The notes below the pieces were generated by a model. The model made no database searches. It had not been told where the DNA came from and saw only the letters and a list, made by a program, of their open reading frames with translations. Shown piece by piece: positions 1,554 to 62,052 of a DNA stretch of 64,000 nucleotides. A program made the position numbers and the translations under genes. Origin of the DNA: Eledone cirrhosa (taxonomy: Eukaryota); assembly GCA_964016885.1 (NCBI GenBank), contig OZ024740.1, positions 267,902,001 through 267,966,000 on the forward strand. Direction: 5' to 3'. Position 1 is the first letter of the stretch; the number at the start of each line of letters is the position of its first letter.

Positions 1554-4500
1554 ACCCCATAGAATAATGAAAGTATTTAAAACATCACGGATAATATCAT
1601 CATTATCTTGCCGTGCTGGTCGGACAGATCGCCATGACTTTCCTTCTCCATCTAACTCTGTCATACATTGCTTGTTACAGGCCCTTCAGATTGTACACAA
1701 CATCCTTACATAGCTATTGGAAGTAAGTTCTATGAGGTCTGCCTAAGAACACAAGTTCAGTCAGCGAACTACTGCAATTCATCTATAGGTGTGGCGTCCG
1801 CGGATGAGAAATTAACAATCGAAAGATTAACATGACTCATTAATAACAATAGTTATTATATTCAATAAATATCAAATTTGCTACAGTTTGCGGGGATTGT
1901 GCTCCTTATTTCAATTATCGGCAGTATAAATTAGTATATTTATATAAAGATAATTATTTCTACTTTTGGCACAAGGCCAGCAATTATCCCAGTGCATTAC
2001 TGGTACTTTATTTTATCGACCCCGTAAGGATGAAAGACAAAGTTAACCTCGGCGGGATGGAAGAAAAATAACCCTAAGAACTGGTAAGTGCATTTACGCC
2101 TGTCTTGTGGAAATGGGTTATGATTAACTATTGGGTGCCATAAAAACTGAATCCTTTGAATAACTTGTAGCATAATAGGGATAAATGTAAACAAATAATT
2201 GCTCTTTTATTTATGATATTTCAAAAGTACACCCAGGTTTACATCCATAGAGTACCCAATTTTATGTCCGCTACTGTACACATAAATGCAAACTTAACCC
2301 TATAATTTGTACACAACTCCCTTCCACTCTCTCTCTCTCTCTCTCTCTCTCTCTCTCTCTCTCTCTCTCTCTCTCTCTCTCACTCTCGCCTCTTCCCTAA
2401 TGAAGGGAAATTTGAGAAAATGAATCAAGAACATGTTCTAGACTAGAAGGGCGAAATTTATCTTCAAACAGGAATGCTTACAAAAAAATGAAAACGGCCA
2501 AAAACCTCGAATCACCGATTTGTGGTGTTAAGAAGGGCGACGGATTAACTCTGCCACGCAAGAAGAACAGAGAAGGCAAAATTCGGGAAAATAATGTCCA
2601 CAAAATCTCGTTTGACGCTCAAACAATTTTAACTCAGAATTCAGTTCAGCACCCTATAGTAAAAATTGATAGGAGAGAAATAAAACACACACGGAACTGC
2701 AGAACAATCAAATCTGTTGCGTTTCATGAAGTAGGGGTCCTATACTTAAAATAATCTCACTATTTCCTAAGTTAATCGGATGTATATATATATATTTATA
2801 TGTGTGTGTATGTATGTGTGTGTAAAATAAAATATATCCTTCGGTGATATATGTAATATATATATATGATATATATATATATATATATATATATATTACC
2901 TGAAGAAGGGCTTATGCCCGAAACGTCGTCCTCCACCTACCCCCCACTCTCCTGAGCGTGAATCTAATAAACATTTGTCGTACTGCCTCTCTGTTCTGTC
3001 CCTGTTCAATTTTTTATTATATATATATATATATATATATATATATATATATATATGTATATACATATTTATATATATATATATTATATATATTATATAT
3101 ATATATATATATATATATATATATGTGTGTGTATGTGTGTGTGTGTATATATATATATATATATATATATATATATATATGCAATTATATCCTCTTATAT
3201 ATAACTCTCTACATACAAATTGAGTTATATATTGTTTTACAATTGCTCGCCCTCCCCTCTCTCTCTCTCTCTCTATATATATATATATATATATATATAT
3301 ATATATATATATATATATATATATATATGTGTGTGTGTGTGTGTGTGTGTGTGTGTGTGTGTGTGTGTGTGTGTGTGTGTAGCGATTTATTCATTTAAAC
3401 ATACACATAGAACAAGATGAACGATGTTATTTACACAACATGGAAGAAAATAATAATGTGAGTATTTAAAAAGACTTACAATCGCTGCAAATGAAATCAA
3501 TCAGACAAATTACTTTCTTGCAAACGATACAAAATCTACTACACACAATGAGACTTTCTAAAGATAATCAAAGGAGGATCGTCAATTGAATAGATTATTG
3601 GTCTAATGAAAAACAACTAGATTAATAAGGCAAATAAAAGCAAATAAAATTGTAGTCGTTGTCAAATAGCATTGAATAAAGTCTTTCATTAAAGTTGTTT
3701 AAGGAAAGTATATATATATGTGGATGTGCGTGGGATTGCAGGGTTGTGTATGTATGTATGCACAGACATCCATATTTATATACATACATACATACATACA
3801 CAGAGGCAAACACACACACACACACACACACACACACGCACACGCGCACACACACACACACACACGCACGCGCGCACACACACACACACACACACACACA
3901 CACACACACACACACACACACACACACACACACACACACACACACACACACACACATATACACACGCACACACACACATATATTATATATATGTTCAGAT
4001 CTAGCTGTCGAAACGGCCGGAGCTCAGCCGTCGGGGTCCTGACTCTTTTCCTATATATATATATATATATATATATATATATATATATATATATATATAT
4101 ATATATTTAAGCAAAGAATCGCTGCTTACACCCTTAACAGGATCTTCTGAAACTAACAAAGTCAATCTGTTAGTTTCAGAAGATCCCGTTAAGGGTGAAA
4201 GCACCGATTCTTTGCTTAAACTTTAATCTGTTATATATATATTTTTATATATATATATATATATATATATATATATATATATCCAAAATTAAGGGTTGTC
4301 ATGTCTGAGAGACATGCACCATATCCACTGTAGAATAAGCTCAAAGATTCCAATGAATAGATCCGAGCATTAAATATCAACTAGAAATAGATTGACATAT
4401 ATATATATAAAATAAACATATGAAACAATCACAGGGAATAATTTGTAAAGAATGTAAGCACACATAACTAGGTAGGTAACTAATTAAAGTTTAACTAGAA

Positions 4501-4928
4501 CTTCAAGTATAGATACCTTTTAAAATGATTAATCTCCTTTGTATATATTTCTTTAAGTAAAAAATATATTTCACCAATTAATCAGTAAATCACAGTAGTC
4601 AAATTCCCGGATGGTCACCAAAGGAGAAGAAGATAACTATCTGCGTTTACAAAGCAAATGCAAATCTGTGAATGACTCGAACCACGTGTTGCATTTTTAA
4701 AAAAATGCACACATTGCACAACGTCATCCCAGTGGCGTGAATAGGATTATCGACAGCCAGAAATAGCAGCCGAGTCTATTCAACTGAATTAGCTCAACAA
4801 TCAAGGGGCCGTATATATATCCAAAATTAAAATTAAGGGTTGTCATGTCTGAGAGACATGCGCCATATCCACTGTAGAATAAGCTCAAAGATATATATAT
4901 ATATATACATATATATGTGTGTGTGTGT

Positions 4929-4978
4929 TCTTGTCTGGTGACCCTGTGAGAAGCAGGCGAAACTCCAGAATAACAAGA
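4929..4978 (+). ncRNA. Type I hammerhead, degenerate copy
   Basis: UCUUGU-CUGGUGA-C CCUG..CAGG C-GAAA-CUC ca GAA-UA-ACAAGA. Sister copy 48768-48817(-) has CAGAUGA and CUC/GAG. The two copies imply a CUGAUGA consensus. Confidence 0.65.
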
Positions 4979-60971: not shown

Positions 60972-62014
60972 TATACATTATGTCAACACCACAATATGAC
61001 ATACACACACACACATAACACCTTCTACTTTAGAAAATAAAAACCCGAACTAAATAAACCTTAAAAATACGTTTGCACTGGCAATACAACAGCAAACACG
61101 AAAAAGTCAGGAAAATATGTTCATTCAAAAATATTCCTACTAAAGGAATCATTTTCCTACACACACACATACACACACACACAATATATATATATATATA
61201 TATTCTCTTCATCTTAACATGCTAACCATACTCCCACACACATAACACCCATACACACACATAACAACCCCCACACCTACAACACCCTCCCCATTTCTAC
61301 TAATAGAACCACTTTCCTACACACATATATATATACACACACACAAAATATATATTCTCTCTATCTAACATACTCGCACACACACACATAACACCCATAT
61401 ACACACACACACAACTCCCTCCTCCATCTCTACTAATAGAATCATCTTCCAATACACACATACACACACACACACACACACACATATACACACACACAAG
61501 CACACAAATAAACACATATCTTCAGTCTCAATAGAAAATCTGAACTCTGACACCTGAACTCTGACAGCTGGCCATATTCACTGAACCAGAACATTTCTCC
61601 CAATCCCTTTTCCCTTGACCACTATCTCTCCATTGTCATAACATTCACTATAAAGACTACAGAATAGTTTTCCAAATAAGGGCGCAAAAATGTAATGAAA
61701 ACTTGTTCACGTGACAGCCAAATTTCATTTATAACCAACCAAAAAAAAGCCTTCGTGAGCCTCATTTTTTCAAGTAAAAAGAAATTCAAACACTCATATA
61801 TGAAAAAACAACCTGTGACAACCCCCCCCCCCCCTCTCTTATTTGAAGAACTATTGTAACGCGAACTGGCGCGAAATTTATTATAATTATTGACAAACCA
61901 ATCAAATTACTTCTCGAAAAACCTGGTTTTCGAGCCACTTTTTCCATATAAAACAAGTAACATTTAGAGACCAACCAGATGTGAGAAAAACCACAGACCC
62001 TCCATCTCAACTCA

Positions 62015-62052
62015 CCTTTTGAAAAGCAGAAGAACTGCGAAACCGGTAAAGG
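62015..62052 (+). ncRNA. Minimal type I hammerhead ribozyme, U3-A8 core variant, in the PLE 3' pLTR
   Basis: CCUU-UUGAAAA-GCAG aagaa CUGC-GAAA-CCGG-UA-AAGG: 4-bp stem I, 4-bp stem II, palindromic ACCGGU stem III. Confidence 0.8.

Follow-up and report, generated by a model that had tools for sequence, protein, structure and literature searches.

What occupies the apparently unique DNA between the simple repeats of a microsatellite-rich genome? This question is raised by a stretch of 64,000 nucleotides from Eledone cirrhosa (assembly GCA_964016885.1, contig OZ024740.1, forward strand, positions 267,902,001 to 267,966,000; called the window below and numbered from its first letter), which has a GC content of about 36%, is rich in simple repeats (126 rows in TRF) and contains an abundant short interspersed nuclear element (SINE) of the transfer RNA (tRNA) type. 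An initial annotation, made from the letters alone, had suggested that many islands within the microsatellites carry type I hammerhead ribozymes (HHRs). Our analysis confirmed that these motifs, as a set, are genuine type I hammerhead folds with a CUGANGA/GAAA/UH core, open at stem I. Hand curation resulted in 33 HHR motifs from 17 families (F1-F16 and F19) and four further possible ones (54363 and 56139 on the minus strand and the pair 17816(+)/19092(-)), and the motif density is about one per 2 kb. We consider it very probable that the islands are the HHR-bearing repeat ends of about 17 families, three of which lie behind open reading frames (ORFs) of Penelope-like elements (PLEs), that likely all of them were inserted into microsatellites by PLEs and mostly represent truncated stumps, and that at least one family is likely a retrozyme passenger.

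Hammerhead folds between the microsatellites

The motifs were searched with a type I hammerhead descriptor, which in its strict form demands the exact core, a Watson-Crick pair between positions 3 and 8, GAAA, U16.1-H17 and a stem I of at least 4 bp. The descriptor was tuned stepwise on the window by admitting free bases flanking stem II, C-G, U-A or G-C as 3-8 pair and a stem II of up to 130 nt (a ceiling of 90 nt excludes the motif at 55568 with its 92-nt stem II and was raised), and the final version was then applied unaltered to 200 dinucleotide shuffles, half of them with the microsatellites fixed in place. The strict descriptor found 13 matches in the window compared to a shuffle mean of 0.53 (maximum 3), and 12 compared to 0.20 (maximum 2) at a score of at least 6. 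With at most one core deviation, 28 matches stand against a shuffle mean of 9.3 (maximum 20), and at a score of at least 6 there are 21 against 1.1 (maximum 5), so that about one of these 21 may be due to chance. The reversed window yielded no strict and five one-deviation matches, none of them scoring 6 or more, and an earlier version of the descriptor gave 9 versus 0.3 and 23 versus 4.4-4.5 matches with 300 shuffles. The excess over dinucleotide-shuffled controls implied by the initial annotation is therefore borne out. The 12 strict high-scoring matches correspond to 10 insertions of 8 families, two pairs being the arms of one fold-back. Just one match was found when a base pair directly after A9 was required. 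A tier allowing two deviations and an altered GAAA picks up microsatellite artefacts (305 matches versus 245 in the reversed window) and was kept for leads only, and the weak matches at 30616, 37775, 42459, 54761, 2281 and 58688 were taken as chance.

Rfam reported no hammerhead match in the window at the gathering score and, at E<=10, no hammerhead among the best 150 of 276 rows, the E-value rows being microsatellite hairpins that match microRNA (miRNA) models. The absence of an Rfam match reflects the sensitivity of the library and is not a defining property of hammerheads.

Almost all sites named in the initial annotation (21 of 22) hold as type I HHR-like folds. Ten pass the strict test (4533-4627(-), 29186, 36273, 44538, 47147, 52024, 52450, 55568, 56652 and 62015), four show one core change (U4A at 4172, 41703 and 48768, U4C at 42669), and four combine an exact core with a stem I of just 1-2 bp (2898, 32537, 41915 and 45379). 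The sites at 4929 and 35609, each with A6G and a stem III mismatch, were confirmed solely via their family partners, and 50412(-) is decayed (G5A with a weak stem I). The site that fell is 56408-56454(-), where CUGAUGA is present and GAAA, stem III and stem I geometry are missing even at a stem II of up to 130 nt (stem I 1 bp). All six of the named palindromic stems III are present, and the motif at 55568 with stem III ACGAUCGU and a 92-nt stem II is real. Our curated set adds two further families, at 45039(-) and 35067(-), and several second arms. The 18 main sites are all HHR folds and belong to 12 families rather than 18, six pairs being copies.

Copies and arms were traced by masked self-BLAST, as a generic repeat finder was dominated by simple repeats. 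A BLAST comparison of the family flanks (18 regions, 153 pairs) gave 40 short matches at E<=1, the best of which is an AT-rich 22-mer, and the sole match reaching an HHR is a weak one between F1 and F12 (E 0.03). The flanks of different families thus have no meaningful similarity, and the proposal of unrelated families stands in this respect, although the arrangement itself is already in print.

The 3-8 pair is C-G in most families, U-A in F1 and F4 and G-C in F15, which represents compensatory change across families, and the stems of F7 covary. Stem II reaches 92 nt, with the long ones found in F6 (47 nt), F12 (55 nt), F4 (59 nt) and F19 (92 nt). Short palindromic stems III form no predicted hairpin in the monomer and self-pair as duplexes; stable monomer stems III are predicted for F2, F4, F12 and F15. 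Natural core variants such as U3-A8, U4C and A6C have been described (PMC3088659), and G3-C8 is known as an engineered rescue (PMC3884650). A literature search for natural U4A or G3-C8 found none, with subscription papers thinly covered and core variants possibly contained in Lunse et al. 2017.

Penelope-like elements with hammerhead ends

Of the three elements with an ORF, F1 extends over 56515-62128. Its reading frame on the plus strand (58644..60971) comprises 775 stop-free codons with reverse transcriptase (RT), a CX4CXXC linker and GIY-YIG, and is 5'-truncated at the inversion junction 58427. The HHR (62015..62052, plus strand) has a U3-A8 core, the palindromic stem III ACCGGU and a predicted cut after 62048, and is located about 1.05 kb 3' of the ORF and 80 nt ahead of the (TA)n end. 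The inverted arm on the minus strand (56515..58426) shares 98-100% identity with 60269-62128, carries a second HHR (56652-56689) and has a 61-nt tail (56515-56575), which terminates in (TA)n. The RT and GIY-YIG domains were identified by Pfam, and among the matches listed for the 758 relatives of F1 a CX2-5CXXC linker is present in 120 of 120. Because of both domains and the CX4CXXC linker, F1 is assigned by its predicted protein to the endonuclease-bearing PLEs of Neptune/Nematis type, the two clades not being separated. It shares with these elements GxKF, the RT, the linker and the Cys pair within GIY-YIG as well as microsatellite targeting, the inverted 5' copy and the tail; it differs by a tail of 61 nt rather than 30-40 nt and by the CCHH motif, whose second and final His is replaced by Tyr in the window copy.

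F2 and F3 are mutually related and barely related to F1 (25%, E 0.04). F2 spans 40021-41776 and contains on the minus strand an ORF fragment of 334 amino acids (40594..41598) with CxCx5C, no Cys pair inside GIY-YIG, CxxC..E and CxH. Its 3' end (40021..40181, minus strand) carries the HHR at 40131-40181 (U4A, 5-bp stem III, predicted cut after 40136), followed by a fixed inner end at about 40107, an 87-nt tail to 40021 and then (TA)n, while the inverted arm (41586..41776, plus strand) carries the HHR 41703-41753. Three further copies are fold-back stumps: 35778..36060 with HHRs at 35843(-) and 35905(+) and a tail, 4106..4231 with the HHR 4172-4222(+) and a mutated minus-strand arm, and 46929..47062, which is truncated within the HHR. 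F3 is a remnant on the minus strand (32441..34137) with frameshifted ORF pieces at 32855-33467, the HHR 32537-32576(-), an inverted arm bearing the HHR 34070-34107(+), and a 67-nt tail. The identification of F2 as PLE is based on 48 full-length relatives with 34-59% identity, in which CxCx5C occurs 43 times, DK[TS] 45 times and RW[KR] 32 times, and that of F3 on its similarity to F2. The RWK and DKT regions are missing from the window's copies of both; in F3 the CxCX5C linker is readable only across a frameshift and the C-terminal motifs are broken. Hydra-clade elements are marked by the CxCX5C linker and the lack of a Cys pair within GIY-YIG (PMC8557442). By this linker, the lack of CCHH, and CxxC and CxH around E/N, the encoded protein fragments place F2 and F3 in the Hydra clade. 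They resemble its members, including Hydra-1_Obim, also in the position of the HHR 3' of the ORF, the insertion in (TA)n, copies ending at one site and a U.U base of stem II, which many of the listed Hydra HHRs have. The differences concern the ribozyme, as F2 has CAGAAGA where all 26 Hydra HHR rows of the supplement have CUGANGA, and in a comparison by eye the HHR sequences of F2 and F3 differ from that of Hydra-1_Obim (PMC8557442). A tblastn search with 168 PLE proteins revealed no PLE-coding stretches in the window beyond F1, F2 and F3.

To follow one family beyond the window, reads and contigs of four public runs with three organism labels were placed on F2 (40021-41585) at 80% likeness. 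Summed depth peaks on the HHR bin in three contig runs (in X1 2.6 M versus 0.08-0.25 M over 40869-41585), and depth on the HHR is 10- to 30-fold over the upstream coding part. Immediately 5' of the HHR, depth drops to half or less in each of the four runs, and all four contain loose ends in (TA)n at 40107 (2412 reads in X19). Most F2 copies are truncated stumps of an autonomous element, because read depth peaks on the HHR over the coding part. Organism C has coverage over the HHR and the ORF but hardly any over 40286-40497, which suggests that the F2 HHR is more conserved than its flank. The U4A change occurs in all seven F2 copies of the window, which derive from four insertions; none of the 40 variant rows listed of 333 lies in the F2 HHR, and the 5' core box is unchanged in a deep contig of organism B. 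It is very likely that U4A is the family state of F2. Neither the F2 protein nor the F2 HHR pattern had a match in metagenome scans. As a separate observation at 40108, 816 X19 reads and 27 X1 contigs run from the F2 tail into a short hairpin with CTAGT at its end, which we take to resemble a Helitron 3' end; the F2 tail may have been captured by, or be of common origin with, another repeat.

Many of the islands are fold-backs with arms 87-100% alike in self-BLAST, and since arm identity covers this range, the fold-backs are of different ages. Each of F1 to F6 shows a 5'-truncated copy in inverted orientation and a tail confined to one end, the fixed end of F2 being confirmed in the reads. In six families one arm halts at an inner site 20-213 nt past the predicted cut and the other extends into a tail of about 60-150 nt that borders on (TA)n. 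An inverted copy with a tail is the signature of PLEs (PMC8557442), and together with the three families behind same-strand PLE ORFs this architecture upholds the view of the initial annotation that we are dealing with a radiation of PLE ends. For 29 of 32 motifs, the 200 nt that follow the predicted cut include a simple repeat; on the upstream side this applies to 12 of 32, and among random positions 27% have one nearby. Some of the downstream runs, including the nearest ones of F1 and F5, are internal to the element.

Families without a coding remnant

The initial annotation also proposed linking each family to a PLE ORF. This was achieved for F1, F2 and F3, and the remaining 14 families are likely cut-off ends or non-coding passengers of PLEs. 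The best candidate for a passenger is F5. At 28920..29493 (plus strand) it forms an ORF-less partial tandem with a 428-nt unit and the HHR 29185-29227, and at 49371..50153 a fold-back with a 422-nt unit and HHRs at 49673(-) (G12C) and 49912(+) (C3U); a fragment lies at 62169-62320. The closed unit with one HHR has the same junction at two loci that are about 91% alike, its longest stop-free stretch is 67 amino acids, and it folds at z = -7. The copies in the window contain 1.1-1.3 units, and a tandem with two complete HHRs is absent from them. Because each of the three HHR copies has a different core lesion or none, the majority core is intact. As the unit is ORF-less with a closed junction common to two loci, F5 is likely a non-coding retrozyme-like passenger. 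Two single loci look alike: F16 is a partial tandem on the minus strand (50285..50727) with a 308-nt cut-to-cut unit, an HHR core at 50444 (G5A) and a 5' end 4 nt ahead of the predicted cut, and the HHR of F15 (4533..4627, minus strand; G3-C8 swapped core, 9-bp stem I, 11-bp stem III) may be part of a 544-nt ORF-less unit (4283-4890). The proposed non-autonomous retroelements are thus partly supported, by F5 and by two similar partial tandems, but the F2 islands are mostly stumps of an autonomous element. In F15, F5 and F11 an octamer motif, ATGCAAAT, is located 40-170 nt upstream of the HHR (4658, 29103, 42521, 42586, 49746 and 49832). Six of the 11 octamers fall in 9% of the window, a post hoc observation on just three families; it is possible that they represent a promoter of the small nuclear RNA (snRNA) type, as used by newt satellite 2.

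Among the other families, F4 (36183..36371, minus strand) has an HHR at 36273-36371 with U3-A8 core, 59-nt stem II and 5-bp stem III, and partial copies at 3992-4038, 48355-48582 (fold-back) and 39327-39389 (tail only). F6 is present as a fold-back (51774..52295) with HHRs at 51889(-) and 52028(+), a 47-nt stem II and a 148-nt tail, and as an inverted arm (44492..44834), in which the HHR 44538-44611(-) is joined to a tail-only plus-strand piece. The F7 HHR at 47147..47208 (plus strand) with stem III AUAUAUAU has two relatives, one at 52450..52515 (plus strand) with compensatory changes in stem II and one at 52814-52875 with G12C. F8 is found at 48768..48817 (minus strand; U4A in this copy) and 4929..4978 (plus strand; A6G and stem III mismatch), with partial relatives at 5069 and 48605, and F9 at 45379..45412 (minus strand; exact core, 5' strand of stem I lost) and 35609..35644 (plus strand; A6G). 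The minimal HHR of F10 (2898..2929, plus strand) is cut off in stem I by the upstream (TA)n. F11 (42668..42714, plus strand; U4C) belongs to an element at 42408-42843 with two octamer motifs upstream, F12 (44959..45043, minus strand) has an exact core and a 55-nt stem II, F13 (35018..35075, minus strand) is decayed (G5A, A9G) with strong stems, and F14 (41916..41953, plus strand) combines an exact core with a 2-bp stem I. F19 (55568..55688, plus strand), with an exact core and the 92-nt stem II, has an inverted arm at 54783-54868. Many copies end 5' within or at the HHR (2898, 45410, 47012, 5069, 48605, 3992 and 48449), and the F2 depth halves at 40173-40187; the folded ribozyme may be a stop site for RT.

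By curated boundaries, HHR elements account for 15.3 of 55.1 kb of non-simple DNA (28%, or about 30% with the F19 element at 55.5 kb), so the statement that they make up much of the unique DNA was overstated. Their share rises from 3% in 1-28 kb to 47% in 28-64 kb, and the three ORF-bearing elements contribute about 9 kb. SINEs and a 3.5-kb long interspersed nuclear element (LINE) of L1/Tx1 type occupy much of the remainder. The LINE (10471-14200) is frameshifted, with endonuclease, RT and zf-RVT domains in Pfam, and related 3'-end fragments lie near 9270-9610, 18180-18520, 44177-44421 and 45600-45975. A 197-nt SINE unit forms a tandem array of 6.6 copies at 20969-22285, and the same SINE is dispersed across the window.

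Several further structures were observed. A long fold-back at 17073-19918 has arms of about 1.07 kb that are 92-97% alike; the possible U3-A8 minimal HHRs at 17816(+) and 19092(-) have a broken stem I and both face inward, unlike those of the other fold-backs. Microsatellite-bounded islands at 54148-54768 (a fold-back) and 55960-56176 contain the possible HHRs 54363- (A6C) and 56139- (U4C). A repeat of about 450 bp, present in two copies that are 77% alike (30402-30818 and 47431-47907), ends in a GC hairpin beside CTAG and is possibly a non-autonomous Helitron. A 155-nt direct repeat (50733-50887 and 51565-51719, 97%) adjoins (TA)n; no HHR was called in it, and it is possibly another PLE-type end.

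Origin of the islands and relation to known systems

In an anole PLE, nicking and RT start at internal sites on both strands were measured, and uncleaved RNA was the main template (PMC11167929). From these data and the anatomy of the islands, we assume that a GIY-YIG endonuclease would nick (TA)n or another simple repeat and that RT would initiate at one or the other of two fixed positions inside the element, 20-270 nt past the HHR cut site. The HHR would be copied first, since RT starts downstream of its cut site, and the template would be an uncleaved or re-ligated RNA, because the copies span the cut site intact. Extension off both nicked strands would create fold-backs with one arm to the inner site and the other with the extra tail of 60-150 nt, and synthesis would often end prematurely, in many cases inside the HHR or shortly beyond it, so that islands of 100-600 bp flanked by a split microsatellite remain. 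Within master elements the HHR would process tandem transcripts into unit-length RNAs, acting as a dimer in families with a short palindromic stem III and possibly as a monomer in F2, F4, F12 and F15, whose stem III is long. Most solitary copies are likely decaying relics.

Some observations weigh against this explanation of the islands. The strict fold at a score of at least 6 was found for just 12 of the 33 motifs, many copies are predicted to form stem I or III poorly as monomers, and an ORF lies within the window for just 3 of the 17 families. The read evidence covers one family, F2; summed depth is not copy number, and its HHR peak could include families that share the HHR alone. In addition, the restriction-site-associated DNA (RAD) run X19 has its top bins in the ORF beside read-start pile-ups and provides no clean depth profile. 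These points leave room for other explanations. The negative Rfam results and the nine matches per shuffle with one deviation would fit chance hairpins in AT-rich DNA full of fold-backs, an idea that is refuted for the set and has a negligible probability in view of 12 versus 0.2 strict high-scoring matches, with none in the reversed window, and of the consistent placement and strand of the motifs, which follow PLE ORFs and precede microsatellites. Individual weak sites (54363, 56139, 17816/19092 and 56450) may nevertheless be of chance origin.

It is also conceivable, yet rather unlikely in our opinion, that most ORF-less families are not PLE stumps but self-standing retrozymes, short circular-RNA units that are expressed and amplified independently by PLE enzymes. 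The closed 422-428-nt F5 unit with an ORF of at most 67 amino acids, the 308-nt F16 unit, the perhaps 544-nt F15 unit, the lack of a coding remnant in 14 of the 17 families and the size of known mussel retrozymes (350-390 nt; PMC7229834) point in this direction. On the other hand, F15 and F16 each occur at one locus, the full dimers or arrays typical of animal retrozymes are missing, and F2, the sole family tested with reads, consists of stumps of an ORF-bearing element; moreover, PLE 3' regions can exceed 1 kb, as in F1, so that the lack of an ORF carries little weight when the island is short. A different concern is that the HHRs are inert by-products, which fold without cleaving and are unused even by master elements. 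The anole PLE inserted in vitro without any need for HHR cleavage, and RNA ends at the cut were not seen (PMC11167929), PLE HHRs cleave poorly in vitro (PMC4209133), and the prolific family F2 carries U4A throughout. We regard this explanation as improbable all the same, given the compensatory 3-8 pairs, the F7 covariation and the retention of the F2 HHR in organism C next to a diverged flank.

On the preferred explanation, a large share of the otherwise anonymous DNA of microsatellite-rich stretches consists of PLE insertions that split their own targets. Standard RNA annotation misses these ribozymes entirely (no Rfam match in the window). With 17 adjacent families, natural changes at 3-8 and 4 and stems of 2-92 nt, the window offers a panel for asking whether PLE hammerheads cleave and why they are kept. 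If the local density were typical genome-wide, the count would surpass the published animal figures compared here. A far-reaching extrapolation, which we consider rather unlikely, would be a genome with hundreds of thousands of hammerheads hidden from Rfam as the densest ribozyme population yet, including active U4A and G3-C8 core variants, monomer-competent long-stem forms and octamer-promoter retrozymes as circular RNAs, which would cut host read-through and intronic transcripts at scale.

Compared with animal non-LTR (long terminal repeat) retrozymes, F5 and perhaps F15 and F16 agree in their non-coding unit of 300-550 nt with one type I HHR, low GC and strong self-pairing (PMC7229834; bioRxiv 2026.07.22.740005). 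They differ in having 1.1-1.4 units without dimers or arrays, short of the tandem of two HHRs by which the preprint defines them (bioRxiv 2026.07.22.740005), and in their insertion as PLE-type fold-backs in microsatellites. A literature search combining hammerhead and octopus found no paper on such a population, with subscription papers thinly covered. On record are a Hydra PLE of Octopus bimaculoides that bears an HHR and prefers (TA)n (Craig et al. 2021, PMC8557442) and 235 hammerhead loci in the giant squid genome (PMC6962438); the words hammerhead and ribozyme are absent from the main text on the Octopus vulgaris repeat annotation (PMC13282606).

The closest parallel are the minimal type I hammerheads in the pseudo-long terminal repeats (pLTRs) of metazoan PLEs (Cervera & de la Pena 2014, PMC4209133). 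As described there, several heterogeneous families share a genome mostly as solitary truncated copies, opposite-strand pairs are 100-700 bp apart, an extra nucleotide is present between A9 and stem II, stem III is short and palindromic, and the U3-A8 variant occurs. The window's stems II of 47-92 nt are unlike the minimal HHRs of that study, several of its families have the long stable stems III reported as a trait of fungal and protist PLEs, and the accessible part of the paper contains no mention of G3-C8 or a fixed U4A; about one motif per 2 kb compares with 2,000-9,000 motifs per genome. The system is therefore an already known arrangement (Cervera & de la Pena 2014; Craig et al. 2021) in an unusually dense instance, and what is less ordinary here is this density, the family-wide U4A core, the natural G3-C8 swap, the stems II of up to 92 nt and the invisibility to Rfam.

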